Positions 6,689 through 24,043 of a stretch of DNA of 25,861 nucleotides are shown here, piece by piece. How positions within the stretch are numbered: position 1 is the stretch's first letter; every line of letters begins with the position of its first letter. Both the position numbers and the translations under genes were made by a program. The stretch is taken from positions 1-25,861 of the forward strand of contig CAZLZF010000002.1 of assembly GCA_964563945.1 (NCBI GenBank), in the 5' to 3' direction. Under the pieces are notes generated by a model. The model ran no database searches, was not told the DNA's origin, and was given only the letters and a program-made list of their open reading frames with translations. Origin of the DNA: Candidatus Woesearchaeota archaeon. Its GTDB lineage: Archaea > Nanobdellota > Nanobdellia > Pacearchaeales > GW2011-AR1.

Positions 6689-6727
6689 AAGGCAGACCGG
6701 TACACCCCCCGGCCTGCCTTTTTCTTT
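6689..6727. terminator. Intergenic hairpin with plus-strand T-tract
   Basis: AAGGCAGACCGG-N8-CCGGCCTGCCTT-TTTCTTT. The U-tract geometry fits plus-strand (antisense) termination; the stem pairs fully with one G-U on the minus strand. Confidence 0.45.
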
Positions 6728-6728
6728 G

Positions 6729-7666: not shown

Positions 7667-8026
7667 ACAAAAAAGGACAAGGCAGTTCTCATTGCAGGGC
7701 TTCAGAAGCTCTCCCAGGACATCGCGGATATCGCTGCGGTACTGGAAGGCGCAGACGCGGCGCCGGCAAAGAAGCAGGACGTACCTGCACAGGACACCGC
7801 CCTGGGGCCGGAACAGGCTGTGGAACCTGAAAAGGCTGAAGAGCCTGCGAAGGTCTACACCTATGAGGAAGTAAGGGCGATCCTTGCGGAGAAGTCCAGG
7901 ACAGGGTTCAGGGCTGAGGTCAAAGCATTGCTTACCGCCCACGGCGTGAAGCAGCTCTCCGACGTCACCGACCCGGAAGTTTATGCCGCCATCGTGGCGG
8001 AAGCGGAGGGAATAGGTAATGGCTAA
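7664..8026 (+). CDS. Conserved phage hypothetical protein preceding DUF2800
   Basis: 120 aa with AAAGGAGG RBS. Ala/Glu/Pro-rich linker, then TYEEVRAILAEKSRTGFRAEVKALL. Confidence 0.8.
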   Translation: MTKKDKAVLIAGLQKLSQDIADIAAVLEGADAAPAKKQDVPAQDTALGPEQAVEPEKAEEPAKVYTYEEVRAILAEKSRTGFRAEVKALLTAHGVKQLSDVTDPEVYAAIVAEAEGIGNG

Positions 8027-9167
8027 ACACGCATACCTTTCCGCCTCAGCGAGTGAACGGTGGCTTAAATGCCCGCCAAGCGCAAAGCTGTGCGCCCAGG
8101 AGGAAGACAGAGGTTCTCCTTACGCCCAGCAGGGCACGGACGCTCACGAGCTCTGCCAGCATCTGGTGGAAACAGCCCTGGGCAGGCCGAGCAAGAACCC
8201 TACCGAAGACCTTACCTATTACGATGCGGAGATGCAGGAATCAGCAGAAGGCTACCGCGACTTCGTGATGGAACAGGTCGAGGCGGCGAAGAAGCTCTGC
8301 AAGGACCCGCTGGTATGCGTCGAGCAGACGCTGGACTTTTCCAAATGGGTGGAGCACGGCTTCGGCACCGGGGACTGCGTCATCGTTGCTGATGACCTGC
8401 TGCACATCATCGATTTCAAGTTCGGGCTTGGCGTGCTGGTAACGGCATCCGGCGAGGACGGCACGGGAAATTCACAGCTGAAATGCTACGCACTCGGTGC
8501 GCTGGATACCTTCGGTGATCTTTATGACATCAAGCGTATCAGGCTCTCCATCTACCAGCCGCGCAGGGAAAACGTGGACACCTTCGAGCTTACAAAGGAA
8601 GAACTCCTGAAATGGGCTGACGAGGTGCTTGCTCCCACCGCCAAACTGGCATACGAGGGCGAAGGCGAATTTGCAGTCGGCGACCACTGCCAGTTCTGCA
8701 AGGCGAAAGCCACCTGCAGGAAACGCGCGGAGTACAGCATGGAGCTTGCAAAGTATGAATTTGCGGATGCTCCCACCCTGGACGAGGACGAGATTGCGGC
8801 GATCCTGCCGCAGATCGACACCCTTATCTCCTGGGCGGAGGACGTAAAGGAATACGCATTAAAACAGGCTCTCGCAGGTGTCCGCTATCCCGGCTGGAAG
8901 CTGGTCGAAGGCAGGAGCAACCGTAAGTACACCAATGAGACCGCTGTGGCGGAGGTCGTATCGAAAGCCGGATACGATCCTTATGAAAAGAAGCTCTTAG
9001 GCATCACCGCGATGCAGAAGCAGTTAGGCAAAAAGAAGTTTGAACAGTTACTGGCGGGGCTGATCATAAAGCCCCAGGGCAAACCGGTATTGGCTCCAAA
9101 TTCAGACACACGTCCGGAGTTCAATACAGCAGCAAATGATTTTATGGAGGATAACGAAAATGAGTAA
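8019..9167 (+). CDS. DUF2800 family Cas4-like PD-(D/E)xK exonuclease
   Basis: HAYLSASASERWLKCPPS, GTDAH, FGTGDCVI...IIDFKFG, NSQLKCYALGA, GDHCQFCKAKATC. Confidence 0.9.
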   Translation: MAKHAYLSASASERWLKCPPSAKLCAQEEDRGSPYAQQGTDAHELCQHLVETALGRPSKNPTEDLTYYDAEMQESAEGYRDFVMEQVEAAKKLCKDPLVCVEQTLDFSKWVEHGFGTGDCVIVADDLLHIIDFKFGLGVLVTASGEDGTGNSQLKCYALGALDTFGDLYDIKRIRLSIYQPRRENVDTFELTKEELLKWADEVLAPTAKLAYEGEGEFAVGDHCQFCKAKATCRKRAEYSMELAKYEFADAPTLDEDEIAAILPQIDTLISWAEDVKEYALKQALAGVRYPGWKLVEGRSNRKYTNETAVAEVVSKAGYDPYEKKLLGITAMQKQLGKKKFEQLLAGLIIKPQGKPVLAPNSDTRPEFNTAANDFMEDNENE

Positions 9168-9744
9168 GAACAACACAGCCAAGAATCCCACCAAGGTTAT
9201 CACCGGTCCCAAGACCGTGATGAGCTATCTGAACGTCAACGAGCCGAAGGTTCCACTCGGCGGAGGTACCCCGAAGTACAGCGTATCGCTGATCATTCCG
9301 AAGTCCGATACCGTGACCATCGCGAAGATCCGCGCCGCCATCCAGGCAGCGTACACCGAGGGTGAAAGCAAGCTGAAGGGTTCGAGCAAGTTCGTGCCCG
9401 CGCTGGAGGATCTTAAGACTCCTCTCCGCGACGGTGACAAGGATCGCAAGGGCGATGAGGCTTACAAGGATTCCTATTTCGTCAACGCCAACAGCACCAC
9501 CAAGCCCGGCGTGGTCGACGGGGACCGCCAGCCCATCCTGGACAGCTCGGAGCTTTACTCCGGCATCATCGGCAGGGCAAGCATCAACTTTTATGCTTTC
9601 AACTCCAACGGCAACCGCGGCATCGCATGCGGCCTGAACAACATCCAGAAGCTCTCCGACGGCACTCCTCTCGGCGGCCACAGCAGGGCTGAGGACGACT
9701 TCGCAGACCTTGACGATGACGACGATGAGGATTTCCTCGGTTAA
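9160..9744 (+). CDS. DUF2815 family phage ssDNA-binding protein (T7 gp2.5-like)
   Basis: KYSVSLIIPK, PLRDGD, FYAFNSNGNRGIACGLNNIQK and an acidic tail ending in F-L-G. GGAGG RBS before ATG 9160. Confidence 0.9.
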   Translation: MSKNNTAKNPTKVITGPKTVMSYLNVNEPKVPLGGGTPKYSVSLIIPKSDTVTIAKIRAAIQAAYTEGESKLKGSSKFVPALEDLKTPLRDGDKDRKGDEAYKDSYFVNANSTTKPGVVDGDRQPILDSSELYSGIIGRASINFYAFNSNGNRGIACGLNNIQKLSDGTPLGGHSRAEDDFADLDDDDDEDFLG

Positions 9745-9750
9745 CACTTA

Positions 9751-9781
9751 CGGAGCGGCGGGCATCCCGTCTGCCGCTCCG
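9751..9781 (+). other. GC-rich hairpin after SSB (stabiliser or weak terminator)
   Basis: Perfect 9-bp inverted repeat CGGAGCGGC/GCCGCTCCG with an inner GGG/CCC pair; no strong U-tract. Confidence 0.5.
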
Positions 9782-9801
9782 CCCCTTTGGAGGATAAGCA
9801 A

Positions 9802-9990
9802 ATGGCAACTGAAGTTATTTATGGTTTTATGGAACAGACCGTGCAGTGGACTTTCATCCTGATCTGCGTCGGATTCTGGTGCATCGGGCTGATCGCAATC
9901 TGGAAGTGGTTCATCGGCGTCATCCGCGGGATGCTCCGCTACCTGTTCCCGAAAAGATTCAGAAAGTATGAGGATAACGACAATGCTTGA
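9802..9990 (+). CDS. Small single-pass membrane protein
   Basis: 62 aa, GGAGG RBS. Hydrophobic WTFILICVGFWCIGLIAIW followed by a basic tail. Confidence 0.6.
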   Translation: MATEVIYGFMEQTVQWTFILICVGFWCIGLIAIWKWFIGVIRGMLRYLFPKRFRKYEDNDNA

Positions 9991-10159
9991 TTATGAGTTC
10001 ATGAGAAATACGGTGATCGCAACAGCCTTCGTGTTCATCATCATGCTGGACATCTGGGGCATCGGCAACATGATCGTGACCTTTGTGAAGTGGATCTGGA
10101 AGAAGACCCATAAGGCAAAGGACGAGCCTGCGGACACCGCAGAAGCAACTGAAGAATAA
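9983..10159 (+). CDS. Small single-pass membrane protein
   Basis: 58 aa, GAGG RBS, overlaps the previous gene. Hydrophobic VIATAFVFIIMLDIWGIGNMIV, then a basic patch and acidic tail. Confidence 0.6.
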   Translation: MLDYEFMRNTVIATAFVFIIMLDIWGIGNMIVTFVKWIWKKTHKAKDEPADTAEATEE

Positions 10160-10169
10160 CCAGAAGATG

Positions 10170-10204
10170 GAGGCGGCAGGAGGAACATTCCTGCCGCTTC
10201 TTTT
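10170..10204 (+). terminator. Intrinsic terminator-like hairpin immediately upstream of the polymerase RBS
   Basis: GAGGCGGCAGGA-N7-TCCTGCCGCTTC-TTTT: 12-bp stem with one G-U. Confidence 0.55.
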
Positions 10205-10217
10205 GAAAGGAATGGAT

Positions 10218-12206
10218 ATGAAGATAGAGAGTTTGTCTTTGGACCTTGAGACGAAATCAAGTGTCGACATCACCAAGTGTGGTGCCTATAAATATGCGGA
10301 AAGCCCGGACTTCGATATCCTGCTTTTCGGCGTTGCGGTAAATGGTGGTGGCGTCATCGTTTATGACCTTGCCTGCGGCGACATCGTCCCCGATGACATC
10401 CTTGCCGCCCTCTCCGATGACAGCGTTGTGAAGTGGGCATATAACGCTTCATTCGAGCGCATCTGCCTTTCCGTATGGCTGCGCAGGAACTATCCGCAGT
10501 ACTTCTCCACCTACAGCATAGAGGGAGACCCCGTGCAGAACTATCTCGACCCGGCATCCTGGAAATGCACCCTGGTCTGGGCGGCATACAATGGCCTCCC
10601 GTTATCGCTGGAAAAGGTCGGTGCCGTTCTCGGATTTGAAGAGCAGAAAATGAAGGAAGGCAAGGAGCTTATAAAGTACTTCTGCTGCCCCTGCAAGCCC
10701 ACCAAGGCAAACGGCGGCCGCACCTGGAACCTGCCGGAGCACGCCCCGGAGAAATGGGCTCTATTTAAGAAATACAACGAGCGGGACGTGCAGGTGGAAA
10801 TGCAGATACAGGAACGCCTGCGCAACTATCCCGTGCCGGACTTTGTCTGGGATGAATATCATCTTGACCAGGAGATAAATGACCGGGGCATCATGATAGA
10901 CCGAACCTTTGTCGAACAGGCGCTTAAGATCGATGAGCTTTCCAACGCCGATCTCACCACCAGAATGCAAAAAAAGACCGGGCTGGAGAATCCCAACTCG
11001 GTCATGCAGATGAAGGATTATTTGAATGAAAACGGCATGGAGGTCGATAGCCTCGGCAAAAAGGAAGTCGCCGCCATGATAAAGACCGCTCCGGAGGCAC
11101 TGGCCGAGGTGCTGGCACTGCGCCTGCAGCTTGCCAAAAGCAGCGTTAAAAAATATCAGGCAATGCAGAATGCCGTCTGCGCTGACAGCCGCTGTCACGG
11201 AATGTTTCAATTCTATGGTGCAAACCGCTCCGGGCGCTGGGCTGGACGGCTTATTCAATTACAGAACCTTCCGCAGAACCATATGGAGGATCTGGAACAG
11301 GCAAGGGAACTGGTGAAGTCCGGCGATTATGAAATGCTGGATATGCTTTACGACTCCGTTCCCGGAGTGCTCTCGGAACTGATCCGCACCGCCTTTATCC
11401 CTCGCCCCGGATACAAGTTCATCGTATCTGACTTTTCAGCCATCGAGGCTCGTGTCCTCTCGCACCTTGCCGGAGAAAGCTGGCGTGCAGAAGTCTTCCA
11501 TAACGGGAGGGACATATACTGCGAGTCGGCATCAAGGATGTTCGGTGTTCCCGTTGAAAAGCACGGTCAGAACTCCCACCTGCGCCAGAAAGGCAAGATC
11601 GCAGAGCTGGCTCTCGGTTACGGCGGTTCCGTCGGCGCACTGAAAGCGATGGGTGCTCTGGACATGGGACTTGAGGAAGAAGAGCTTCAGCCCCTGGTGG
11701 ATATGTGGCGCGACAGCAATCCAAACATCACGGCTTACTGGTGGGCGGTCGATACCGCCGTTAAGACTGCGATAAAGAAGAAAACGCCTGCGAAGGTCGG
11801 TGACATCACTTTTGCCGTCCGAAGCGGCATGCTTTTCATCACACTGCCTTCCGGCAGAAAGCTGGCATATGTGAAACCGAAGATCGGACAGAATAAATTC
11901 GGCGGCGAGTCCGTCACCTATATGGGCATTGACGCGCAGAAGAAATGGAGCCGCATCGAATCCTACGGTCCGAAATTTGTGGAGAACATTGTCCAGGCTG
12001 TAAGCCGGGATATCCTTGCCTATGCCATGCGGACGCTGTCCCATTGCTTCATCTGCGGTCACGTCCACGATGAACTTATCATCGAGTGTGACCCTCGCGT
12101 ATCGCTGGATGCTGTATGTGAGCAGATGGGCAGGACGCCGCCCTGGCTGCCCGGTATCGAGCTTCGGGCTGATGGTTACGAGTGTCCCTTTTATCAGAAA
12201 CAGTGA
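10218..12206 (+). CDS. Phage family-A DNA polymerase with 3'-5' exonuclease domain
   Basis: SLDLET (ExoI), AYNASFER (ExoII), YNERDV (ExoIII), DFSAIEARV (motif A), RQKGKIAELALGYG (motif B), HVHDE (motif C). Confidence 0.95.
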   Translation: MKIESLSLDLETKSSVDITKCGAYKYAESPDFDILLFGVAVNGGGVIVYDLACGDIVPDDILAALSDDSVVKWAYNASFERICLSVWLRRNYPQYFSTYSIEGDPVQNYLDPASWKCTLVWAAYNGLPLSLEKVGAVLGFEEQKMKEGKELIKYFCCPCKPTKANGGRTWNLPEHAPEKWALFKKYNERDVQVEMQIQERLRNYPVPDFVWDEYHLDQEINDRGIMIDRTFVEQALKIDELSNADLTTRMQKKTGLENPNSVMQMKDYLNENGMEVDSLGKKEVAAMIKTAPEALAEVLALRLQLAKSSVKKYQAMQNAVCADSRCHGMFQFYGANRSGRWAGRLIQLQNLPQNHMEDLEQARELVKSGDYEMLDMLYDSVPGVLSELIRTAFIPRPGYKFIVSDFSAIEARVLSHLAGESWRAEVFHNGRDIYCESASRMFGVPVEKHGQNSHLRQKGKIAELALGYGGSVGALKAMGALDMGLEEEELQPLVDMWRDSNPNITAYWWAVDTAVKTAIKKKTPAKVGDITFAVRSGMLFITLPSGRKLAYVKPKIGQNKFGGESVTYMGIDAQKKWSRIESYGPKFVENIVQAVSRDILAYAMRTLSHCFICGHVHDELIIECDPRVSLDAVCEQMGRTPPWLPGIELRADGYECPFYQKQ

Positions 12207-12209
12207 CTG

Positions 12210-12244
12210 AAAAAAGCCTCTCTTCCGGGTGTGGAGGAGAGGCT
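12210..12244 (-). terminator. Terminator between the convergent polymerase gene and defence operon
   Basis: AGCCTCTCTTCC-N6-GGAGGAGAGGCT with an A6 run on the left, giving a U-tract for the minus strand; probably bidirectional. Confidence 0.75.
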
Positions 12245-12248
12245 CGTT

Positions 12249-13145
12249 TTATACTTTCGCAAATTCCCTGAAAACCTTCAGAAGCTCGTTCCAGTATGGC
12301 GGATAATCATTGCTGCCGGAATAAGAGCGTTTCCTGTTTCCGGTCAGGCTGATGTCGAGGCTCCATTGCGTTCCGTCCAGCACGCAGGGATCAACGAAGC
12401 TCTTCTTCCACTCATGCAGATACATCTGGCCATATAGCTTGTTTATTATTCTCTGCCACTTTGCGGGTGTGATCTGGCGGTCATCTGGGACTTCTTCCGG
12501 CTCCAGCATTTTCTGAACACTTACCAGCGCACCTTTATCATTCTTCCTGATCGTAATATCCGTATAGCCGTCGAAGTAGCCTCCGACAGAAAACTTGATG
12601 CAGGTAACGATATCCCGGTAGTCTTCTGCGGTATCATTCTTCGGTGTTATGAGAATTGGCGCTGTAGCAAAATCCTTCTTACAGTCATTGCATTTTCTCG
12701 CCGGCATGGTGTCAACATGATGTCCGTTGATCTCGATGCTGCTGATACAGCAACCTCCGAGAACCCACTTCCCGGCATCCAGCTTTTGCTGCATTTCTTC
12801 GCTGAAAGCCGGATAACCATATATGTACCGAGCGGTATTCTTGCTGCCGCAGCGCGGGCATTTAATCTGCGCCTTCTTGTTCTTAACGATAAAAGTCAGA
12901 TTAAATGGCAGCCCCTCCACCTTATCCTTATGCTCCGACATATCCAGAGTGATGTGGTTTGCCCTCGCCGCCCTGAAAAGGGCATCATGCAGATCAAAAA
13001 GATCGAAGGTTTCCATATCTTCATATCCAAAGGCACGAGCCAGCCGTCCTGTTGTGGTAACTGTTCCGTCCTCGCACTCACGAAGTTCTTCTATCATGCC
13101 TTCCGCTATATGCCGAAGGTCAGCTTTTGAATATTTCTCACTCAT
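12249..13145 (-). CDS. Hypothetical three-part protein with central Zn-ribbon
   Basis: 298 aa from ATG 13145 (GGAGG RBS). CPRCGS...YGYP...LGGCC...CNDC. C-terminal LDGTQWSL...YSGSNDYPPYW domain. Confidence 0.75.
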   Translation of the reverse strand: MSEKYSKADLRHIAEGMIEELRECEDGTVTTTGRLARAFGYEDMETFDLFDLHDALFRAARANHITLDMSEHKDKVEGLPFNLTFIVKNKKAQIKCPRCGSKNTARYIYGYPAFSEEMQQKLDAGKWVLGGCCISSIEINGHHVDTMPARKCNDCKKDFATAPILITPKNDTAEDYRDIVTCIKFSVGGYFDGYTDITIRKNDKGALVSVQKMLEPEEVPDDRQITPAKWQRIINKLYGQMYLHEWKKSFVDPCVLDGTQWSLDISLTGNRKRSYSGSNDYPPYWNELLKVFREFAKV

Positions 13146-14898
13146 TGTCTTCGCCCTCCTTTGGCTCAATGCTGGAATCCATGCCAGCGATAATGTCAAA
13201 CATCTCTCTCGGCACTACGAACGGCTCGGAAAAAGCGTTGATGACGATGCCCTTTACGTTCTTCTCATTATTCCGAGCCAGGATCATTGCCTCCATGAAG
13301 TGCCTCTCCATCTTGGAAAACTGCTCGCCGTATTCTCCCATTTCCGTATCGGAAGTAAATACGGGGAAGAAGAAGTCATCTCCATTCTGGAGGATATCGG
13401 GAACCATTCTTGTCTCGTCATGCGCCACGAAGTTCTGTCCGACCAGCGAATCAAGTCCTTCACCGTCCTTCGCAGCTAAGACCATCTTTTCAAAAGCTTC
13501 ATAATCCGCATCGCTCATGATGGCATTGCAGGGTACCCATACCCAGCTGTCACGGAGAATTTTCGCCAGCTTGATGAGGTTCAGCTGCGTCCTGTTCCTG
13601 TTGCATATCTCCGTGGCTCTTTTCAGGAAAGCACCGCCCTCCAGCAGTTCCGGCGTGATCTTATCGTCCGGGACGGAGTATTCCACATCTCCATCAGCCT
13701 TGAATATCATCTCGATCAGTTCCTTGGCAAGCATAAAGGACTGCCCCCAGGGATTGATGATGAAACCTTCGGCCCCGGTATCAACGCAGGCTTTCAGCAT
13801 ACTGTCGATAAAGTGGGAAAGCACCTGGCTGGGCTCGCCCTTTTCAAACTCTGCCTGGGAAGTGAATACCGCATGCCACATCTTGCCGTCCTTCGTCTGT
13901 ATGGAACGGAAAGCGAACTGGCTATCATCCTCTTCATCCGTAATGACGGGAACGATAAAATGCCCGTCTGCGTGCATTCTGGTACGGATGGCATCCAGAA
14001 CTGCGATCAGATTCTCCTTGCTGGCATCAGCGTGATACTTGCTTATGGCTTCCTCGATCAGCTCGTTTCCATCAAGGAACATATCGTGAAAGCCGTCCTT
14101 GCCTTCGCTGCCGGATGCATCAAAGCGGTCGATCACGGCGAGCATATCATCCGGCAGACGTTTACGGCACTCATTTACCATCTCCGCAGGGATGCCATAA
14201 AACGCCTCCGCCATGCCGCCAGCTATGCAGGTCAGGGTGTCGCAGTCTCCGCCGAGGGAAACAGCTGTGCGGATAACATCTTCAAAGTCCGTGCCTTCCA
14301 TAAATGCCGTGATTGCCTCCGGCACCGTCTGCTGGCATGTCTCCACATGATGGTATCCCGGACGGATCTCATCGCAGGTACGGGAAAGGTCATAGCCAAA
14401 CTCGCTGATGATGTATTCCTTTATCTCCTCTTTGCTGTTGCCATTCCTGGCGAGGAAGATTGCGCTGGCCGTAGCCTCCGCTCCCTTGATGCCTTCCGGG
14501 TGGTTATGCGTAACCTCGGCGGTAAGCCTTGCCATATGCCTGGTCTCTTCCAGAGTGCCGAAAAGCCAGCCTGCGGAAGAAACACGCATGGCAGAGCCGT
14601 TGCCGAAACTGCCGTAAGGCTTCGGATTCTTCTCACGCAGCCACTGATAGAACATCCCGCCATATCCGGCATTAGGATAACGCTTGCCCCACTTCTGCAT
14701 GGACTCCACCAGGGCAGTCCTGATCTCGTCATCGCTCTTTCCGATGGTATCCATCAGAGCCTCCGCCACTGCGATAGTCATAACGGAATCATCCGTAAAC
14801 TGTGACCCTCTGCTGAAAAGTGGGAACTCCTTCGTCTTATTGCCCCTGTCAAATTCATACGGCGCACCGATCATGTCGCCCATTATTGCTCCGATCAT
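13138..14898 (-). CDS. ADP-ribosylglycohydrolase (DraG/ARH family) fused to two SseB-like domains
   Basis: GAIMGDMIGAPYEF, FTDDSVMT, SFGNGSAMR, THNHPEG, SLGGDCDT. C-terminal half has two repeats of a PV...xFTS...GxxINxxx pattern typical of the SseB N-terminal domain. Confidence 0.88.
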   Translation of the reverse strand: MIGAIMGDMIGAPYEFDRGNKTKEFPLFSRGSQFTDDSVMTIAVAEALMDTIGKSDDEIRTALVESMQKWGKRYPNAGYGGMFYQWLREKNPKPYGSFGNGSAMRVSSAGWLFGTLEETRHMARLTAEVTHNHPEGIKGAEATASAIFLARNGNSKEEIKEYIISEFGYDLSRTCDEIRPGYHHVETCQQTVPEAITAFMEGTDFEDVIRTAVSLGGDCDTLTCIAGGMAEAFYGIPAEMVNECRKRLPDDMLAVIDRFDASGSEGKDGFHDMFLDGNELIEEAISKYHADASKENLIAVLDAIRTRMHADGHFIVPVITDEEDDSQFAFRSIQTKDGKMWHAVFTSQAEFEKGEPSQVLSHFIDSMLKACVDTGAEGFIINPWGQSFMLAKELIEMIFKADGDVEYSVPDDKITPELLEGGAFLKRATEICNRNRTQLNLIKLAKILRDSWVWVPCNAIMSDADYEAFEKMVLAAKDGEGLDSLVGQNFVAHDETRMVPDILQNGDDFFFPVFTSDTEMGEYGEQFSKMERHFMEAMILARNNEKNVKGIVINAFSEPFVVPREMFDIIAGMDSSIEPKEGEDNE

Positions 14899-15230
14899 TG
14901 TATTTGCTCCCTCTTACATATACCCAGCTCCAGAAATACCGGGTAAAGATAGCTCGCACCAAACACACCGAGCTTTTTCGGTCCCGATACGCAGCCTTCT
15001 GTTTCCATCAGTTCCAAAGCTTTCTCATATGCCAGCAGCACCGTGTTACGGGTTATCGTTTTTTCCTTGCGATCAATCACCAGCTCGCCCAGCGGTTCTC
15101 CTGTACGGCTGATTTTCTGGTGGTATGTAAACGGCAATCCCCGCGCCGTTTTGAACTCTTCTCCGGCATGAGCCAGGAGCATAGACCAGATCTCGTCATC
15201 CCGCTCATCCGTTACGGTATGGTAGTTCAT
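14895..15230 (-). CDS. Conserved hypothetical protein
   Basis: 111 aa with ATGA overlaps on both sides. FKTARGLPFTY...DRKEKTITR...GPKKLGVFGASYLYP. Confidence 0.75.
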   Translation of the reverse strand: MNYHTVTDERDDEIWSMLLAHAGEEFKTARGLPFTYHQKISRTGEPLGELVIDRKEKTITRNTVLLAYEKALELMETEGCVSGPKKLGVFGASYLYPVFLELGICKREQIQ

Positions 15231-15760
15231 GAACCGTACTGAGGAGCAATCTCCTCCAAGGTCTGCTGCCCCAGCGCAAGGATGCCGTCATCCAGCACAG
15301 CAAATACCACCTGCAAGTCTGCATCGGGATTCTTCTGGAAGAAGTCATTGCATGCCTGTATGGCTTTTCTCCATGCCTTGTCTTTCGGATAACCGAAGAT
15401 GCCTGCGGAGATTAGCGGAAAGCCAATAGAATGACATCCGTTCTCCACCGCCAGTTCCAGCGACCTGCGGTATGCGCCATAGAGCATTTGTGGTTCCTTA
15501 TTGTCACCGCCGCTCCATACAGGACCTACGGCATGGATGATATATTTCGCTTTCAGGTCAAAGCCGGGAGTGATGACTGCGGAACCTGTATCACAATGCC
15601 CGATGGCATCACAGGCAGCCTGGAGCTTGTCGTGTCCGGCTGCACGGAAGATAGCTCCGCACACACCGCCGCCAGCCCATAAGCCGTCATTGGCTGCATT
15701 GACGATAGCGTCTGTATCCAAATCGGTGATACCGATTTTCTGTATCTTAATCGAGTTCAT
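15227..15760 (-). CDS. Macrodomain protein (MacroD/YmdB-like ADP-ribosyl hydrolase)
   Basis: DAIVNAAN, GGGVCGAIFRAAG, IIHAVGP, SIGFPLISAGIFGYP. Confidence 0.95.
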   Translation of the reverse strand: MNSIKIQKIGITDLDTDAIVNAANDGLWAGGGVCGAIFRAAGHDKLQAACDAIGHCDTGSAVITPGFDLKAKYIIHAVGPVWSGGDNKEPQMLYGAYRRSLELAVENGCHSIGFPLISAGIFGYPKDKAWRKAIQACNDFFQKNPDADLQVVFAVLDDGILALGQQTLEEIAPQYGS

Positions 15761-15770
15761 AAGCGCCTCC

Positions 15771-18443
15771 CTATTGCTTTATTTCCGGCTCAAACAAATC
15801 CGGCGAGTTGAAAACCACTTGGTTTGCTTCGACTTTCGTATTCTCATTGGTACAGGTCAAAGCATCTCGTTTCAGCTTTATTGTTCCGTCTTCCTGGCGG
15901 ATGATCCAGTCCTCATGATTATCCTTTATGTATGTCGCTGCCTCACGGGAAAAGCCGTGCCTCTGAAGCTGGATGGTTACGGGATTTGTCGTGCCATACT
16001 CCACATACTCGTACCAGTTGTTATTGAACTCCGTAATATCATGAATCCGCATGTACTCATTTGAAAACTTCAGGAAGTAGTTCGAGATGCTGAAAAGGAT
16101 CACATTGTCGATTACTTCCAGCGTGGAGGAAAGCACAATATTCTTATGGGTAAGCGAATAATCATAGGTGGTTTTCTGATATTTGCTTATCCAGAAGTTT
16201 TGCGGGTGATTCTCTCGCCATTCCACCGCCGATTTCATTATCAGGAATAATCCGCTGCCTTCCATCCACTGTCTGAGAATAACGGAATACCACCTGATAA
16301 GCTGAAGATTGCCGTGCTCATCCGCCTTCCCAAGGCTCGAATATTCATAGGTTCTCCAGTCAAACACATCTGCCAGCGTTGTAAGAAATTCTACTATGCT
16401 GTCATAGTCAAATTTTCCATCAGGCTTCAGTTTCGGATATTCCAATCCCTGTTCTATCGCCTTTGCCAGTTTCTTTGTCTGATCCACAGAAGTGTTTATA
16501 TCATCGTCCGGGAATATAAAGGGATCATCAAACATTGCACGGATTGCCTGTTCCTCCTCCGGTGTGATGTAGTCCCTAAACTCACGGCGCACAAGACTAT
16601 CTCGGTTTTGCATGATATCTCGGAGAAGCACCAGCGCAAATTTTCGCATCATCTCATACGATTCTTCTGACTGGTCATCCCGGCGCTTTGGCATTTCCGT
16701 AGTGCCGCTTTTCAGAATATCTGCCACATACTTTTTCTCAACGCCCTTCAGTACATTGGGGTCAGTTGATATGGAAAGCGTCTGCGTAGGAACCGGTGTT
16801 TTCAGCATTTCCTTGAAATCTGAAACACCCTGATCCTTTTCTCCTGTGGCCACAAAGAATACGTTGCCGTGAAGATTAAACCGAATCCTGCCCACGCGCC
16901 CGATCAGATTCTTAAAATCCACAGGTGACATCTTGCTGCGGAATATCTTTGTATCCGTAATAAAAAGATTGTCCGCAGGCAGATTAACGCCTTCCAGCAG
17001 GGTGCTTGTGCAGAAAAGGGTAGTGATCTTTCTTTTCTCAAACAATTCCTCAATGCGCCGCCTTATCGACGCAGGCAGGTATCCGATATGATAAGCAATG
17101 CCCATCCGAAGGAGCTTTACAAGATAATACTCCCCATGAACTTCTTTCTTGATGTCATCCGAAAGCTCAATAAGCTCCTTATCATCCTTTTCGTACTTTA
17201 CTTCTTCAGCAAACGCAAGAGCCGCATCAATGGCTTTCTGGCGACCATTGCAATAAACAATCGTCTGCTGCCGCTGTTCCGGGGGAAGCAGTATGTTGGG
17301 AGCCTCAAAACGGTATAAGAGTTTACTCAGCGTTACATTTCTGAGGCGAATAAGCTCGGTCGAGGTTTCTGTCCTGTCATTGTATATTTCTATGTTTCCC
17401 TGTTTGAGGTCAATCAGAAACTTAATCTGTGTTACCGGGGAATAAATGGATGCCAGCTTGCTGCCGGAGGTATCCTCCTCTTCCTCAATCAGATCGGTCA
17501 ACAGACGAAGGTAAAGCTCAGGGTTCGGAATATTCGGTGCCGCAAATATAAAGTGCGGCCTGTCATCCCGATGCAAGAGCATATCAACAACCTTGTAGTA
17601 GAACGGACCTCGCCCGTTTTTCCCGGATAGTTTATGTGCCTCGTCCACGAACAGATAATCAATATGGAGTTCCGGCTTCTTTATCAGCAGATAGAGCATA
17701 CGCTCCGGCGTCAGTACGAAGATAAAGTTGTGTTCCTCTTCAAGTGCCAGCTCTCCCGCCGCTGTAATAACACGGTAATTCTTCCCCTTAAGGTTATCCT
17801 GCAAGTCCTCGATTATTTTCCCTTTTATCTCATTGATCAGAGCCTTTGTCGGCACCAACAGGGCAAAATTCAAGTGAGCATTATTCAGAACCTGTTCCTT
17901 GATGAACATCCGCATGATGAAGGATTTTCCCATGGATGTTGGACCGGAATAGGTAAAGTAGTCATCTGTCAGATGATCATATGCAATTTTCTGGTCATTA
18001 AAAAAGCGGAGCTTCGGTTCAGCCGGGATTGTGAGGTAATCATCCCGGAACTCGGAATAAATCTGCTCGAACACATCAAAGCCACGAAAGTCGGACTTGA
18101 TGATGGTCATGCCCTGCAGGTTTCCCGTATTTAGGAATACGGAGCCTGCTACAAGCTTCACCGTTTCATTCTCCGGGTACAGTTCTGAAAGCAGAATTAC
18201 TATCTCCTGCGCCCATTGCTTATGCTGTTCGGCATTTTTAGGATGGTTTGACTTTGAAAGCAGATCCGCAAAGCGAAGCGCATCTGTTACATCAACATCC
18301 TTCTGTATCTGCCTTCCAGTAGCCCGCTGCACTTTCTTCATTCCGTAGTTGTACAGCAAATGGTCATACAGCTTATTCAAATATGGATTATTCTCGATGT
18401 CAGCGAAAATCACCGACCCGAGAGTAGGCTTAGTGTCGGTCAT
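15771..18443 (-). CDS. hamB: Hachiman HamB-like Ski2/DEAH-box SF2 helicase
   Basis: GPTSMGKS, LVPTKAL, VDEAH, AYHIGYL, CTSTLLEGVNLP, NLIGRVGR. ATGA-coupled to the upstream DUF1837-like gene. Confidence 0.8.
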   Translation of the reverse strand: MTDTKPTLGSVIFADIENNPYLNKLYDHLLYNYGMKKVQRATGRQIQKDVDVTDALRFADLLSKSNHPKNAEQHKQWAQEIVILLSELYPENETVKLVAGSVFLNTGNLQGMTIIKSDFRGFDVFEQIYSEFRDDYLTIPAEPKLRFFNDQKIAYDHLTDDYFTYSGPTSMGKSFIMRMFIKEQVLNNAHLNFALLVPTKALINEIKGKIIEDLQDNLKGKNYRVITAAGELALEEEHNFIFVLTPERMLYLLIKKPELHIDYLFVDEAHKLSGKNGRGPFYYKVVDMLLHRDDRPHFIFAAPNIPNPELYLRLLTDLIEEEEDTSGSKLASIYSPVTQIKFLIDLKQGNIEIYNDRTETSTELIRLRNVTLSKLLYRFEAPNILLPPEQRQQTIVYCNGRQKAIDAALAFAEEVKYEKDDKELIELSDDIKKEVHGEYYLVKLLRMGIAYHIGYLPASIRRRIEELFEKRKITTLFCTSTLLEGVNLPADNLFITDTKIFRSKMSPVDFKNLIGRVGRIRFNLHGNVFFVATGEKDQGVSDFKEMLKTPVPTQTLSISTDPNVLKGVEKKYVADILKSGTTEMPKRRDDQSEESYEMMRKFALVLLRDIMQNRDSLVRREFRDYITPEEEQAIRAMFDDPFIFPDDDINTSVDQTKKLAKAIEQGLEYPKLKPDGKFDYDSIVEFLTTLADVFDWRTYEYSSLGKADEHGNLQLIRWYSVILRQWMEGSGLFLIMKSAVEWRENHPQNFWISKYQKTTYDYSLTHKNIVLSSTLEVIDNVILFSISNYFLKFSNEYMRIHDITEFNNNWYEYVEYGTTNPVTIQLQRHGFSREAATYIKDNHEDWIIRQEDGTIKLKRDALTCTNENTKVEANQVVFNSPDLFEPEIKQ

Positions 18444-19387
18444 ATAAGGTTGACATCTCCTTTCAGAACATCCTCCATGACTTTCTTCTTATCGCTTTCC
18501 GCATCATTAAACGGAACAATGAAAAAGTAGAAAGACTTCATGCCAAGATTGTTGTCTTTTATTTTCTGTATGATTTGAGGAAGGTGTCTCTGCAAGTCAT
18601 CCAGCACCTTGTCCTCCAAAATTGTCGGAAACTCAGCTGGAGTATAGTTCTCAGGAACAAGTCCAAGGGAGTAACCCAGGAATACGGCAAACGATGTGTT
18701 TCTCGGCACCTTTTTCCCTTCAACAGGAACAATCATTTCTTTCAAGAAATCAATATCCGACTTATTCGAAAATCGGTCTGCAGGTGTTTCGAGAATAAGA
18801 TTATCTACCAGCCCAAGTTCATCAGACTTGTGCTGCTCGATGCTTATGATCCTGTCAAAAGCACTGTTGATGGCATATTTCAAATCCCCAACGATGGATG
18901 AGGAACCGAATACCACCTGGTGATAAGGCATCCCGGAGATGCCCGCAGGAAGGAGATGGATATTATCAGGTTCACTGTTATAGCGCGCCCCATCCGTGGA
19001 TAATTCCACCCTGCTCATCAGCTTCGGTGCATCCAGCTTTTCTTCCGTGAAAATGTAGTTCAATACCTCGCCAAGTTCAGACCCTGTGCCTTTTACATCA
19101 GCGCCTTTCTTTTTCAAAATCCTCTTTGCCTGGTCGATAATGACATCGGCGTTACCGGCATTTTTGAACTTGTCTATCTGTGCACGGGAAAACGCATATG
19201 TTCCGATATTCAGATACAGCTGGGTTTTCAGTTTCTCCAGATCAAAACGGTTGTCCGGCATATCTGATAGGTAATAGAGGTGCAGCTTCTCAGGAACACG
19301 CAAACCAATCTTCTCGGAGTGCGTCACCTCCGTGAAGATACCATCAATGCTATGTTCCTTTACGCTTTTCCCTATAGAATCCGGCAT
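18440..19387 (-). CDS. hamA: Hachiman HamA-like (DUF1837) protein with degenerate nuclease motif
   Basis: GSELGEVLNYIFTEEKLDAPKLMSRVEL, PDNIHL, VVFGSSS..GDLKYAINSAFDRI, FAVFLGY, FYFFIVPF, directly upstream of the Ski2-like helicase. Confidence 0.72.
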   Translation of the reverse strand: MPDSIGKSVKEHSIDGIFTEVTHSEKIGLRVPEKLHLYYLSDMPDNRFDLEKLKTQLYLNIGTYAFSRAQIDKFKNAGNADVIIDQAKRILKKKGADVKGTGSELGEVLNYIFTEEKLDAPKLMSRVELSTDGARYNSEPDNIHLLPAGISGMPYHQVVFGSSSIVGDLKYAINSAFDRIISIEQHKSDELGLVDNLILETPADRFSNKSDIDFLKEMIVPVEGKKVPRNTSFAVFLGYSLGLVPENYTPAEFPTILEDKVLDDLQRHLPQIIQKIKDNNLGMKSFYFFIVPFNDAESDKKKVMEDVLKGDVNLI

Positions 19388-19431
19388 ACCTCTGCACCTC
19401 CTTCAAAACCAATACCAACATATGCCCCGAT

Positions 19432-20337
19432 TCATTCGTCATCACTAAAATAATCGTAATCGATCTTCATGATTTTATGAGTAACAACAGGCGTTACTCC
19501 AAGTTCATATTCAATCATCAGCTCAACCAGTTGCTTTCCGTCTATGAGCATGATCTTATATCCGCCGGGATTCTTCTCGGCACAATCCCGCGCCCCGCTT
19601 GAAAATTGGCCTGTGGTAATGAACAGCCCTTTTGATGCGCCATGCTCTACCATTGCCCCGAGGAATTTCTGGATATCCGGCCTCTGCACATGAGAGTCTG
19701 CCTTCCATCTCTTTGCCTGAGTATAAACAGCATCAAAACCAAGCCTGTCCGCACGGACAATGCCATCAATACCACCGTCGCCGGATTTCTTGGTTACGGC
19801 ATCCTGGTTCTCTTCCGGTTTTCCATATCCCATTTTTAATAAAAGATCGACAACGACCTGCTCAAAGGCATACTCATTCATGCGGGATACTTCTGAAAAA
19901 AGATCATCGGCAAGCCCTGACCTCAACTGCTTCATCGCCAGATCGATAGCCTCTTGTGGACTCTGGGTATCCGCCACCTGTGTAGTTTCAGACGTGGCTT
20001 CCGGTATTTCTCCACCGTTTTTCACTTGCAGGTCATGCACATATTCAAGTGAAAGCTCCGTGCCTTTATCCAGTGCATCTTTTCCAAGAGCCGTAATGCA
20101 GAACTTTGCCCTGCTGGGACTATCTATCAAGCCAGCCTTCTTCAAATGGGTTTTTGCCCAGCCGACACGGTCTATAAGCATATTTCTCCCGCTCGGAATC
20201 ACAGCATTCCTATCCTCATCAGACAGTTGAAAACTATCGGCGCAATATGCTCTTATTTCTTTCAGATCATGTTCTTGTCCATCGCCGAGGATTTTGAGAA
20301 ATGACGGAAAAAACTCATTATACTTTGGTACTGCCAT
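19432..20337 (-). CDS. mrr: Mrr-family type IV restriction endonuclease
   Basis: Mrr_N-like N-terminus (DRVGWAKTHLKKAGLI). Catalytic domain FEQVVVDLL..MGY, SGDGGIDG, TQAKRW, GLFITTGQFS, IMLIDGKQL. Confidence 0.92.
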   Translation of the reverse strand: MAVPKYNEFFPSFLKILGDGQEHDLKEIRAYCADSFQLSDEDRNAVIPSGRNMLIDRVGWAKTHLKKAGLIDSPSRAKFCITALGKDALDKGTELSLEYVHDLQVKNGGEIPEATSETTQVADTQSPQEAIDLAMKQLRSGLADDLFSEVSRMNEYAFEQVVVDLLLKMGYGKPEENQDAVTKKSGDGGIDGIVRADRLGFDAVYTQAKRWKADSHVQRPDIQKFLGAMVEHGASKGLFITTGQFSSGARDCAEKNPGGYKIMLIDGKQLVELMIEYELGVTPVVTHKIMKIDYDYFSDDE

Positions 20338-20372
20338 GCCGCGTGCCTCCTTTAATGCTTGAAAATCGTTCT

Positions 20373-23300
20373 TTATTTATGGCTCTGAATAATCTCCATT
20401 GCTACCGTTGAGAGATCCTTGCCTTCATATGTTGTCAGCAGTTTTCCGGGGAAGTTCTCCTCGTACCACTTCTCTTTGATCTCCCAGTGAGCCTTATACT
20501 TTGGAAGATCAAGCCTTCCAACATGCTCCCAGTAATAAGTTTCACCTTTGAATTTGACTGTGAAGTCCGGCAGGAACATCGAGCCATCCTTCGCGAATAA
20601 AGGTTGCTCATACACAAAAGGAATATCCTCGGACACAAGCATATTTGCTATGATCACTTCCGACTTTGACCTTACAAAATACTCCGAGAGTGTTGCCAGC
20701 TTCTTTTCTTCCTTGTACCAGTCCCCACTATATAGTAGTTCATCCGGGAGCGGATTAAACTCAAATACAGATGAGTTTATCTTTCTTACCGCAGACTTCT
20801 CCACATGGCTCATAGTGGTAAGCGTACTCATATCCTGCTGGAGGAATACAGTCACATGCTTCTGCGCTCTTGTAAGCGCGGTATAAAGCAGTTCCATACT
20901 CAGCAAATGGCTGTCTCTTGCCGGAATGACGATGTAAACATAGTCAAACTCCGATCCCTGAGACTTATGCACGCTTATCGCATATGCCAGTTCAAGATTG
21001 TCCGTTACTTTCTGGTCGGGAATCCAATAATCCCGATCATCCTTTCCCAGGTCTTTTCCGTACATATAGCTATAGTTCTTCCTGGATGAGCCAGAAAAAT
21101 TGCACTGAAAGTGCTTGAGACTCGACATGTAATTTATCTTCTTCCGCTCATACCCCATAGGAGAAACTGTACCTATCTCGCCATTGTAAATTTCCTGCCT
21201 TCCAGTTTTTCTCGCAGACCAGTCATAAACATAGGCTTTATCAGATGCCGGACGATTCCTTATCTGAATAACTTTATCAAACAGACCGATGCCTTCAACA
21301 TTCAGCTTGCGGCTCCAATAACCATTGAACACTTCCTGCATGAATGTGTTGATAGACATCGTTCCGTAGAACTCACCGCGGTATGGTGAAATCACCTGGA
21401 ACTTCTCTGGGGAATCCTTTGTCGCCTCCGTCCACAGTTTATGAAGCTCCTGATCCGTTCCAGCTGGAAGCCCTGTCATTTCCTGCATATCTTCGACAAG
21501 ACACTTTTTCATCAAGACTTCGAGGTCTTCCTGCTCATTCCAGAAGTAAACGCTCAAGTCATTATCAACTGCGCCGTTGCCATTCTCAAGGATAGATGTG
21601 AATATCTTTTCTTTTTCGTATTTGAGCATTGCAGCGGCATCGGAGTCCTCTCCGGCAGTCTGTTTTTCCTGTATGAATACATTCGCCAAATCCAGAATGC
21701 CGGTTCCGTTTCCTTCTACAGTATTTACAAGTTGGCGGATGTTTTCCGTAAGCGTACCGACACTTGCTGCATACTCATCATCTGATTTTAACCATTCAAT
21801 CGTGTCTGCGAACACCTTACCCCTACCAATAGGCGGAAGCTGGTTAGGATCGCCGACAAGTATTAGTCTCTGCACACTGTTCCAATTGATAGCCCGGAAC
21901 AAGGTAGCAAACAAATTCAGGTCAATCATGGAGCATTCGTCAAGGATCAGCGTATTCACATCTCTGCTCGTACTGCCACCTTCACGCTTCAGTGTCATGT
22001 TCTTATTCAGCCAGCCGTTTTTTGCAAGGAAAGAATGTATGGTGGAGGACGGCTTTCCGGTCTGGACTTTGATCCTCTCCGCCGCTTTTCCCGTAGGAGC
22101 CATAAGCAGGAAGCTGGTGCCCTCACCATGGATTTTTTCGATGGTATCCAGAATAGAATCAATTACTGTCGTCTTTCCTGTCCCCGCTGCGCCGGAAAGA
22201 ACGCAGATAGGTTTCCTGAAAATCTGCATACATACATCAGCCTGACGGTTTATGATGCGCTCATATTCCGCTGCGGTATCCTCGTCATCCAGTAATTTGG
22301 AATCTTCACGCCTCAACGTCCGTTTGAATTTATCCGGGGATACCTTCAGCTTCAACTCAATATCCGGTCGTTCTGCGAGCATACGGAGTACTGATTCGAC
22401 GGTGCGTTCATCTTCATATACGGAGCGGAGATAAAGGTACAGCACGCCTTCTTCGTCCTTCTTAAGGAATAAGCCGCCATTAAGAATATCCTTGTCTACT
22501 TTAAAATTCTTGATGCTATAGACATTTTTCTTCCACTCCGACATCCTATCAAGTCTCGCATTTATGGATTTCAGGATTGTCTCGGCTTTTCCGAATGAAT
22601 GAGCAGGAATCCAATTCAGCTCATCAACGCAAAGAGCGCGCAGCCTTTCGGTAGAACCTGCATCGAGAATCTCCTCCAACCCGTATTCCGGTGAAGGAAT
22701 AACACCGTTGTCAATCTTGTAGAAAGGAATGGTATCATCCGAATCATCTCCACGGTACTGCTCGAAAATGATATACGGATTCTCTAACAGCTCATCCGTT
22801 GATGCCGTGATAGAAACATCCTCCTTATTTTCAGACATGATACCTCTGACCTGTTTTGCAGTAAGGTCGAACCGTGGAAGCATCTCCAGAAGTAGTTTCT
22901 GTTCGTTGTCTTCCATCATCTGATAGTTCCTGCGGATTACCTTCAGATCCTTGGCCGCAAACTCAATGCCGTTTATGCTATCCGTATCGCCATCCAGCAG
23001 TTCCACCAGCTGACCATAAAACTCCCTTTTAGCAGAATCAGTAGACAGATCAAAATATGGTTTTATCAGCGAATGGAGCTGCAGATATTCCATCACGGAA
23101 GCAAGTCCTGGATAAGGGCCTCTGTCCGTCCAAAGCTCGTTCAGTACTGAATTAAGCCACTCCTTGCGCTTTTCCCAGTCCTCAGTCTCGTCGCCTATTT
23201 CTATCAGCACATCAATAGTTTCTATCATCCGCTGAATAACTTCGATGGCATCATCATCGGTTACCTCGCGACTTCCATACTTAAACGGAGAGCGGTTTGT

Positions 23301-24008
23301 GGGCTTTATCACAAGCCGGTCAGACAGGTCTTCATCTCCCATGTACTTCCAATACGGAATACAAAATCCTTCCTCTGGATAGGTGGATGTTATCGGCTTC
23401 TGCCATGCAAAACCTCCGGCGTAATACTCTCTTGTCTTCTCGGAAAGATTGTCGTAAAAATAGAAGTCGTCAATGTGCTTAATTCTTGAAATACCGACTA
23501 TGACAAAGTTATTCTCTTCGCCCTCGGAGAAAGGATTACTATATCCGGCATAGTAGAACACCAGGGACTTCTTTTCCGTGAACTGAGCAAAATACTCCTG
23601 GGCGTTCTGAAACCTTTTATCATAGTTGTACTGTTTTCCGCTGCCCGGAGCAGCGTCAACTCCTTTTTTATACATGGCTTCATAACACCATGTACATGCA
23701 GTTGACGGTGGCAATACAAGCTCTACAGGATCACCCTCATTCAGCCATTCCGGAGGATCAACTTTTGTCTTAACCGTCTCCTTACCGAATGCATTTATGC
23801 TGAGAGCACACGCTATATCGCAGGGATATTTTTGTGCAGACTCACCCGGATGCTTTTTCTCCAGCTCCAGGTTCCTCTTTGATGCTATCAAATCCCCAGG
23901 ATAGGAGTGTGCGCCGACGCAATAGGGGTTGTTGCACGGATTTGCACAAATATGCCCATTCCACCCCTGATCGTGCCAAGCTAACCTTATACTCATATGT
24001 ATTGCCAT
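20373..24008 (-). CDS. RecD2-like SF1B helicase with uncharacterised Cys-rich N-terminal region and C-terminal PD-(D/E)xK (DUF559/Vsr-like) nuclease
   Basis: ENPY..F..ID...ERLRAL (RecD2 HhH-like region), GAAGTGKT, ILDECSM, LVGDPNQLPPIG, AYAISVHKSQGSEF, LLYTALTRA. C-terminal RSKSEVIIAN...YE..L...PDFT...YWEHVG. Confidence 0.8.
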   Translation of the reverse strand: MAIHMSIRLAWHDQGWNGHICANPCNNPYCVGAHSYPGDLIASKRNLELEKKHPGESAQKYPCDIACALSINAFGKETVKTKVDPPEWLNEGDPVELVLPPSTACTWCYEAMYKKGVDAAPGSGKQYNYDKRFQNAQEYFAQFTEKKSLVFYYAGYSNPFSEGEENNFVIVGISRIKHIDDFYFYDNLSEKTREYYAGGFAWQKPITSTYPEEGFCIPYWKYMGDEDLSDRLVIKPTNRSPFKYGSREVTDDDAIEVIQRMIETIDVLIEIGDETEDWEKRKEWLNSVLNELWTDRGPYPGLASVMEYLQLHSLIKPYFDLSTDSAKREFYGQLVELLDGDTDSINGIEFAAKDLKVIRRNYQMMEDNEQKLLLEMLPRFDLTAKQVRGIMSENKEDVSITASTDELLENPYIIFEQYRGDDSDDTIPFYKIDNGVIPSPEYGLEEILDAGSTERLRALCVDELNWIPAHSFGKAETILKSINARLDRMSEWKKNVYSIKNFKVDKDILNGGLFLKKDEEGVLYLYLRSVYEDERTVESVLRMLAERPDIELKLKVSPDKFKRTLRREDSKLLDDEDTAAEYERIINRQADVCMQIFRKPICVLSGAAGTGKTTVIDSILDTIEKIHGEGTSFLLMAPTGKAAERIKVQTGKPSSTIHSFLAKNGWLNKNMTLKREGGSTSRDVNTLILDECSMIDLNLFATLFRAINWNSVQRLILVGDPNQLPPIGRGKVFADTIEWLKSDDEYAASVGTLTENIRQLVNTVEGNGTGILDLANVFIQEKQTAGEDSDAAAMLKYEKEKIFTSILENGNGAVDNDLSVYFWNEQEDLEVLMKKCLVEDMQEMTGLPAGTDQELHKLWTEATKDSPEKFQVISPYRGEFYGTMSINTFMQEVFNGYWSRKLNVEGIGLFDKVIQIRNRPASDKAYVYDWSARKTGRQEIYNGEIGTVSPMGYERKKINYMSSLKHFQCNFSGSSRKNYSYMYGKDLGKDDRDYWIPDQKVTDNLELAYAISVHKSQGSEFDYVYIVIPARDSHLLSMELLYTALTRAQKHVTVFLQQDMSTLTTMSHVEKSAVRKINSSVFEFNPLPDELLYSGDWYKEEKKLATLSEYFVRSKSEVIIANMLVSEDIPFVYEQPLFAKDGSMFLPDFTVKFKGETYYWEHVGRLDLPKYKAHWEIKEKWYEENFPGKLLTTYEGKDLSTVAMEIIQSHK

Positions 24009-24043
24009 AACGCACCTCCGTTATTATCCTGAGAAAAAATATG

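Follow-up and report, generated by a model that had tools for sequence, protein, structure and literature searches.

A candidate writer-less ADP-ribose eraser module beside a Hachiman pair in the cargo slot of a Heliusvirales-type phage fragment

Systems in which ADP-ribose deconjugating enzymes occur without a coupled transferase are widespread and were described as ARG-centric by Iyer et al. (Viruses 2022, PMC9503650, section 3.8), who proposed that they reverse viral or invader ADP-ribosylation. Their partners comprise chaperone-like SseB or vWA proteins, accessory Macro or NADAR proteins, and variable restriction endonucleases and helicases, with a Nudix or WYL repressor in 42% and a phosphatase in 55% of the systems. 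Here we analyse a stretch of 25,861 nucleotides (the window; contig CAZLZF010000002.1, positions 1 to 25,861, of assembly GCA_964563945.1, deposited as a Candidatus Woesearchaeota archaeon), in which four genes, hereafter the cassette, encode a Macro domain protein, a 111-residue protein (X111), an ADP-ribosylglycohydrolase (ARH) fused to two SseB domains (ARH-2xSseB) and a Zn-ribbon protein (ZnR), immediately downstream of the Hachiman pair hamA-hamB. With modest confidence, these four genes are regarded as a stand-alone eraser module without a writer (the transferase), placed where the variable cargo slot of a Heliusvirales-type temperate phage borders polA.

Other described systems share particular aspects with this arrangement. 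Bxa-BAH-Bsi from a Bacteroides stercoris prophage (PMC11699363) also includes a prophage-encoded ARH-family enzyme of protective reversal, BAH neutralising the prophage ADP-ribosyltransferase (ART) Bxa; it differs in its adjacent cognate writer, its other host phylum and the lack of any SseB fusion in the abstract that describes it, whereas no writer was detected in the window. Orphan DarG or NADAR-like enzymes of phages (PMC11825919) likewise represent Macro-type erasers carried on mobile elements without their toxin, and phage carriage of orphan antitoxin-like erasers against DarTG is also reported (PMC11481870, PMC13309987). DarTG itself has DarT beside its Macro/NADAR antitoxin, while the window shows no DarT match, its Macro is MacroD/YmdB-like, and the genes occupy a moron slot. 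Orphan PARG erasers are further reported to protect against the RNA-ART toxin RhsP2 (PMC11833690), and ART-type anti-defence proteins are known, AcrIF11 being an example (PMC12421852).

The closest likeness is to the ARG-centric systems, and it concerns the features described for them (PMC9503650). The window locus shares with them an ARH without coupled ART or sirtuin (two of the four writer searches being weak), a chaperone-type partner (two SseB domains fused to the ARH, together with a ZnR whose Mago-like domain is matched with Z 10), and an accessory Macro encoded two genes upstream of the ARH. It departs from them in that Pfam detects no Nudix- or WYL-HTH (helix-turn-helix) repressor in the window, a frequent trait of the class and not an obligatory one, and no phosphatase (rhodanese-phosphatase, calcineurin-like, HD or HAD) in the cassette. 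Published hosts are mainly actinobacteria, planctomycetes and proteobacteria, whereas this module occupies a fixed slot in a phage, fuses its ARH to two SseB domains and has a winged-helix/Zn-ribbon/Mago-like partner. We favour reading the cassette as an eraser module in its own right, mosaic in make-up and belonging to a predicted class, in a phage-borne variant lacking regulator and phosphatase. The idea in the original prediction that such erasers undo foreign ADP-ribosylation remains plausible; it is not new, since it was predicted in PMC9503650.

The proteins of the cassette and the search for a writer

The cassette has ARH-2xSseB as its conserved anchor. This protein has more than 7,400 homologues, over 100 of which exceed 70% identity, and nucleotide homology between the window and the related phage locus L001 (L numbers designate the loci compared) comprises the phage backbone and then 13140-14903 alone, a stretch reaching from the stop to the start of the ARH-SseB gene. 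The ARH domain spans approximately residues 1-260, and the SseB domains approximately residues 281-396 and 430-575. Across 30 homologues, residues E15, D36, D37, D218, D220 and T221 never vary, and they align with the metal-binding and catalytic residues of ARH3, the conserved positions matching its TDD and GGDxDT motifs. As judged from these residues the di-metal active site is complete, and catalytic competence is predicted. Regarding specificity, the domain resembles ARH3 (E 1e-14) more closely than DraG (E 1e-4), and for this reason the arginine specificity assigned by the original prediction, which took the enzyme as a DraG/ARH one, is not established. Prediction of a complex between the 2xSseB part (residues 265-586) and ZnR returned a score of 0.00 against a mark of 0.32, which counts neither way.

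A separate observation comes from L121, a sister phage whose nucleotide sequence from polA as far as the SseB region, ZnR included, is 99.5% identical to that of the window. The gene at L121:5993-7252 encodes an SseB1-SseB2 part 99% identical to that of the window (299/302 residues), while the ARH head (856 bp) is absent and a 117-residue HSDR_N_2, restriction-endonuclease-like head stands in its place; coverage of this contig is 2.85x, so that errors or a chimera could lie behind the apparent swap. Different enzymatic heads may be exchanged on the 2xSseB scaffold, which would then serve as a general adaptor.

The Macro protein has DR_2288 (9w48, E 7e-42) and YmdB (E 4e-34) as its nearest solved structures and is consequently of the MacroD/YmdB type. 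Its glycine loop reads GGGVCGAIF, with Cys in place of the Asp of YmdB and Phe in place of its His, and its GIFGYP motif is intact. A Gly-Val-Cys loop is also present in active alphavirus macrodomains, so that the window protein is predicted to be active. It shares 67% identity with the Macro half of the Macro-NADAR fusions in L103-105, and approximately 40% with the long-form Macro (330-390 residues) that is the usual companion of the ARH.

ZnR, the fourth gene product, is a swappable accessory. Its model (pLDDT 86) consists of an N-terminal winged helix (residues 4-93 matching winged-helix domains with Z ~6.6), a central CPxC...CxxC Zn-ribbon, and a C-terminal alpha/beta domain that resembles Mago-nashi (residues 179-297, Z 10.0) and is built as a flat sheet with two helices packed against it. 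The same general topology is described for the TY-chaperones of Iyer et al. (PMC9503650), a resemblance only. ZnR has 288 homologues; in the loci compared they occur in two eraser arrangements, either after ARH-SseB (L002, L031, L107 and L121) or before a Macro-NADAR fusion (L103-105), and also alone (L098 and L100); the Atlas clusters of ZnR carry mostly viral labels, and a search of the GenBank phage collection gave no match. In L103:8001-10346 and L105:4311-6656, the homologue lies directly 5' of a 481-residue Macro-NADAR fusion, in surroundings that include large helicases, a dynamin-like GTPase, an FtsK-like ATPase and a WHH nuclease toxin with its SUKH immunity gene.

X111 belongs to no family. 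It has 347 homologues and matches only unnamed clusters in the Atlas, and its AlphaFold model (pLDDT 90) is a small helix-sheet-helix protein for which fold searches returned nothing above noise (Foldseek PDB E > 0.2; VIA Z < 4). Homologues are found in other islands without Macro or ARH nearby, and none occurs in the 81 non-window ARH loci (L001-L007 and L010-L089). X111 travels as free-riding cargo and is no specific part of the cassette. Homologues of X111 in L092:7072-8333 and of ZnR in L098:5916-7196 are each situated just 3' of DUF4357-containing genes.

No writer was recognised. Six-frame searches of the contig for DarT, ART, ADPrib_exo_Tox and SIR2_2 found none, two of the four being weak searches that stayed silent in every control genome, as happened with the DarT model PF14487, and no called gene of the window has an ART, DarT or SIR2_2 match in Pfam. 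Neither is an ART listed among the 25 most frequent Pfam families of 101 neighbours, a tally restricted to those families that a rare ART could therefore escape. X111 and ZnR were considered as cryptic writers and rejected, their folds (a helix-sheet protein, and a winged helix/Zn-ribbon/Mago-like protein) being not ART-like. The earlier statement that the window holds no recognisable ADP-ribosyltransferase, sirtuin or DarT-like gene thus agrees with the Pfam matches, the six-frame searches and the folds.

In the mechanism that we propose, ARH-2xSseB and Macro would form the working core. Since the di-metal site of the former is complete and the ADP-ribose pocket of the latter intact, both are predicted to hydrolyse ADP-ribose adducts. 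The SseB domains would act as client-binding, chaperone-like elements delivering modified macromolecules to the ARH head, ZnR would be an exchangeable adaptor, and X111 a passenger. Expressed alongside the other prophage cargo, the module would remove ADP-ribose placed by foreign transferases, whether these belong to superinfecting phages or are injected as ART toxins, on proteins or nucleic acids of the lysogen.

A recurrent core in a phage cargo slot

The contig has a GC content of 50.8%, against 27-32% for almost every other contig of the 678-kb metagenome-assembled genome (MAG; ~30% GC). Most likely it stems from a phage or prophage and was mis-binned, so that the taxonomy of the MAG is not applicable to it; consequently, a search for a writer in its own genome is uninformative, and the MAG says nothing on the host. 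According to Pfam, its replication module carries SNF2, a DUF3987 primase-helicase and DUF7768 on the minus strand, and a DUF2800 nuclease, an Enc34-type single-stranded DNA-binding protein and PolA on the plus strand, the latter showing 64-70% identity to PolA of Ca. Heliusvirales phages. Phage L091 displays the same divergent layout, the convergent block after its polA consisting of a type I restriction-modification (R-M) system and then an excisionase, and the window island is therefore taken as a tenant of a prophage cargo slot. Segments differ in GC, with 54-57% for the phage backbone, 48-53% for the cassette, and 44-46% for hamAB, Mrr and PDC-S68. The features of the window are collected in Table 1.

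Table 1. Location of the features discussed, with the evidence for each.
Feature	Coordinates	Strand	Evidence or remark
Heliusvirales-type phage replication module	745-12206	both	Pfam and PolA identity; delimits cargo slot
Bidirectional intrinsic terminator	12215-12244	both	13-bp stem, 7 GC pairs, T-run on each strand
ZnR, 298 residues	12249-13145	minus	Weak Pfam Zn-ribbon match; three-domain model
ARH with two SseB domains	13138-14898	minus	Pfam PF03747, E 2e-37; PF07179 in two stretches
X111, conserved protein of 111 residues	14895-15230	minus	Open reading frame; no Pfam match
Macro domain protein, 177 residues	15227-15760	minus	Pfam PF01661, E 1e-39
hamB-macro spacer with GGAGG ribosome-binding site	15761-15770	minus	Sequence; GC step here
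HamB	15771-18443	minus	PADLOC PDLC00190 (HamB1), E 0
HamA	18440-19387	minus	PF08878; PADLOC PDLC00162 (HamA1), E 2e-100
Mrr type IV restriction endonuclease	19432-20337	minus	Pfam, PADLOC; same cargo island
PDC-S68 helicase-nuclease	20373-24008	minus	Pfam, PADLOC; same cargo island
Type III res, truncated by contig end	24044-25861	minus	Pfam, PADLOC; same cargo island
Cargo slot, window	12207-25861
Cargo slot, L091	14060-22504
Cargo slot, L107	25-6231
Cargo slot, L121	3-8126
Cargo slot, L001	239-7156

Across loci, what recurs as a core is the combination of Macro and ARH(-SseB), at times as a fusion. Of the 43 loci whose ARH is at least 60% identical, 26 also carry the long-form Macro, usually just 5' of the ARH and on the same strand in the gene maps, and L013, L014 and L016 contain ARH-SseB-Macro fusions in a single open reading frame. 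A conserved component between Macro and ARH was also considered and rejected, the five examples being unrelated and one of them vWA-like. The gene after the ARH is most frequently a SIMPL protein without signal peptide (13 loci), with ZnR and a serpin as alternatives. The four cassette genes, which the original prediction suggested following through other genomes, consequently do not all travel together, X111 occurring elsewhere without erasers and the fourth gene giving way to SIMPL or serpin. Nudix-NrtR regulators appear in 8 relative loci, adjoining distant ARH-only relatives in Bacteroidales, and vWA-like genes appear in 10. Defence-type neighbours elsewhere include McrBC, SRA, Fic, AbiEii, Abi_C, ZacC, several PDC candidates, ZorD-like and DpdE.

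The position of the cassette in related phages is constant. In the window, L001, L107 and L121 it abuts a convergent polA, and the cargo upstream of it differs: the L001 slot contains flavodoxin, nitroreductases, a 2H esterase, long Macro, a 240-residue gene, ARH-SseB and SIMPL, and the L107 slot McrB, McrC, a 244-residue gene, long Macro, ARH-SseB and ZnR. More generally, the convergent slot after polA appears as a cargo hotspot of Heliusvirales-type phages, where type I R-M, McrBC, GmrSD with Hachiman, nitroreductases and the window island have been observed.

Two further observations concern the core. A contig of the landfill run X5 departs from the window exactly at 13140, where the ARH stop meets the ZnR start, which fits a co-circulating variant with a different fourth gene. 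A gut contig (L005:19747-21663) has two eraser pairs 8 kb apart, one formed by short Macro, a 66-residue gene, ARH-2xSseB and a serpin, and the other by long Macro and an ARH devoid of SseB.

This phage context also bears on the direction of benefit, for the orphan erasers could serve counter-defence, clearing ADP-ribose that host DarT-type (on DNA) or CmdT-type (on mRNA) enzymes attach, or destroying ADP-ribose-derived immune signals. Apart from the conserved position of a phage-borne cassette in those four related phages, such a role is suggested by ARH-only relatives in Porphyromonas and Bacteroides phages and in jumbo phages, by a related Macro in another Heliusvirales phage, by the viral labels of the ZnR clusters and by the precedent of orphan anti-DarTG erasers mentioned above. 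Nonetheless, the cassette points towards the replication genes and shares its orientation with R-M, Mrr and Hachiman, as in a moron and not as in an early lytic operon; the phage backbone is not visible at most loci; and only 4 IMG/VR contigs were retrieved by an alignment scan (none by a single-sequence scan), against 93 stretches in one-genome-per-species contigs. Altogether, counter-defence is considered unlikely, albeit the strongest of the alternatives.

Immunity to an ART toxin, either the phage's own MuF-type polymorphic toxin encoded in its unassembled structural module or one delivered by neighbouring bacteria, would make ARH-SseB comparable to BAH or Tri1. The neutralisation of Bxa by BAH and the protection against RhsP2 by orphan PARG erasers provide precedents, and the L103 neighbourhood, with its WHH toxin and SUKH immunity gene, points in the same direction. 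Immunity genes are normally found directly beside their toxin. On the contrary, no ART was found within 13 kb of the cassette or in the top Pfam families of the 101 neighbours, and the cassette lies far from the expected MuF position in the head module, which makes this explanation improbable.

Adjacency to Hachiman

The Hachiman pair is bona fide, with a DUF1837 HamA next to a superfamily 2 helicase HamB, identified as HamA1 and HamB1, and the cassette genes are present in no described Hachiman. HamA lacks the E-x-K motif of the PD-(D/E)xK type, showing FGSSS at 18896-18910 (residues ~160-164). Its five closest homologues, whose HamB partners are 43-53% identical, have FG(A/T)S there, four distant ones have G-E-(A/S)-K, and the sole solved relative found (9wh1) is also devoid of E-x-K at the aligned position. 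As the five closest homologues lack the motif as well, its absence is a trait of the clade and not a one-off lesion.

Every gene between 12.2 and 25.9 kb is on the minus strand. The TAG stop of hamB is followed by GGAGG, and the ATG of macro lies 10 nt downstream; ATGA overlaps of 4 nt join Macro to X111 and X111 to ARH, hamA and hamB overlap by 4 nt, and the ARH/ZnR overlap is 8 nt (ATGAGTGA) if ZnR starts at ATG 13145. This start, preceded by the ribosome-binding site AAGGAGG and coinciding with the first residue of the Atlas protein, is likelier than TTG 13199, the start initially proposed. The hairpin at the end terminates both the minus-strand cassette and the convergent plus-strand polA. 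The order read initially from the DNA, with overlapping Macro, X111, ARH-2xSseB and Zn-ribbon genes 10 nt after hamAB and a single terminator, is therefore recovered by Pfam, PADLOC and the sequence itself.

From this order the original prediction derived a composite anti-phage system of Hachiman and erasers, in which the latter would regulate or protect HamAB or the restriction enzymes, for example by reversing inactivating ADP-ribosylation by phage anti-defence proteins, of which AcrIF11 shows that ART-type examples exist. Indeed, cassette and hamAB share the strand and the 10-nt spacing with no terminator between them; the exact window sequence, junction included, was found in 15 DNA runs that stem from six studies and cover bioreactor, sludge, landfill and digester material; and a 779-nt landfill-metagenome contig spans the junction with zero mismatches, so that the arrangement is real and in circulation. 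Yet gaps between island genes are all of at most 45 nt, and hence the 10-nt spacing is nothing special. Contigs from RNA runs (three metatranscriptomes, depth 2-5) cover parts of ZnR, ARH-SseB, X111 and polA and not hamAB; DNA carry-over, or relatives with another hamB allele, are possible sources of them, and no conclusion on co-transcription is drawn.

Reciprocal neighbourhood tests argue against a composite. Searched by tblastn with the window proteins, HamA or HamB occurs within 10 kb of ARH(-SseB) in 0 of the 81 non-window loci, and Macro, X111, ARH or ZnR occurs in the 1.5-kb flanks of HamB homologues in 0 of 9 HamAB loci, these loci coming from the 9 genomes with a HamB homologue among 401 sampled from the order around a Lachnospiraceae isolate. 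Hachiman and the cassette were seen together twice, in a single lineage, that is, in the window and in L121. In the latter, a HamB is also located upstream, though it is only 50% identical to that of the window, while Macro and X111 retain 92% nucleotide identity (the L121 Macro having two frameshifts) and the segment from polA to SseB 99.5%; moreover, a DUF4268 fragment and a GmrSD gene separate this hamB from Macro. No Hachiman is present in the assembled sequence of L001 and L107, which reaches just 2.8 kb upstream of Macro in each. Finally, GC drops from 48-53% in the cassette to 44-46% in hamAB exactly at the hamB/macro junction, in line with the caveat in the original prediction that cassette and hamAB may differ in origin. 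Taking these points together, a true composite is very improbable, and Hachiman is, on balance, rather a neighbour than part of the cassette, their adjacency reflecting the stacking of cargo in a hotspot and no common mechanism.

The remaining co-tenants of the slot are Mrr, PDC-S68 and type III R-M. The PDC-S68 gene encodes a 1211-residue helicase that matches the PADLOC model end to end (E 0) and represents an uncharacterised single-gene defence candidate. An Rfam search of the window gave no match.

Weighing the proposed role

Some considerations weigh against a stand-alone protective module. The literature search found no experimental test of the ARG-centric class, and the PADLOC scan that had been suggested, while calling HamA1 and HamB1, relies on a version (v2) with no model for any of the four cassette genes. 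Many ARH-only relatives are located among housekeeping genes (ribosomal protein S2, EF-Ts, transporters); the HamB upstream in L121 makes an ancestral Hachiman link within the lineage possible; and the rest of the prophage is unassembled, so that a writer may lie elsewhere on the phage. The ARH3-like similarity would point away from the arginine-linked ADP-ribose produced by T4 Alt/Mod. The protective role is inferred from gene context, and the phage could equally employ the erasers for its own counter-defence.

Metabolic clean-up of free ADP-ribose derivatives (O-acetyl-ADP-ribose, ADP-ribose-1''-phosphate) by an auxiliary gene without conflict role, as hinted at by the names of the matched MacroD/YmdB and ARH3 entries (molecules named for O-acetyl-ADP-ribose action), the nitroreductases, flavodoxin and 2H phosphoesterase upstream in L001 and the housekeeping-like setting of some ARH loci, is the least probable alternative, given that the SseB fusion, the fast swapping of partners and the recurring restriction and abortive-infection neighbours are hallmarks of conflict systems.

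A further reading would have the erasers act as a guard of the guards, stripping inactivating ADP-ribose that incoming phages or plasmids place, in the manner of AcrIF11, off the defence proteins of the lysogen. We hold this reading as improbable; if true, Hachiman, Mrr and the R-M enzymes would be kept working by a module at the base of the defence-cargo slot. As a caution, tight spacing of genes in prophage cargo slots is no proof of a composite system.

Writer-less erasers constitute an abundant class of candidate immunity genes, so far a predicted one, and near relatives of ARH-2xSseB number in the thousands in metagenomes from gut, rumen and digesters. The window locus is a compact, intact example from a temperate phage, through which the 2022 prediction becomes directly testable. 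Its sister phages offer natural comparison partners, with SIMPL in the place of ZnR, McrBC or GmrSD in that of Hachiman and, in one phage, a different head in that of the ARH, which, if real, would be a natural head swap on a single SseB scaffold.

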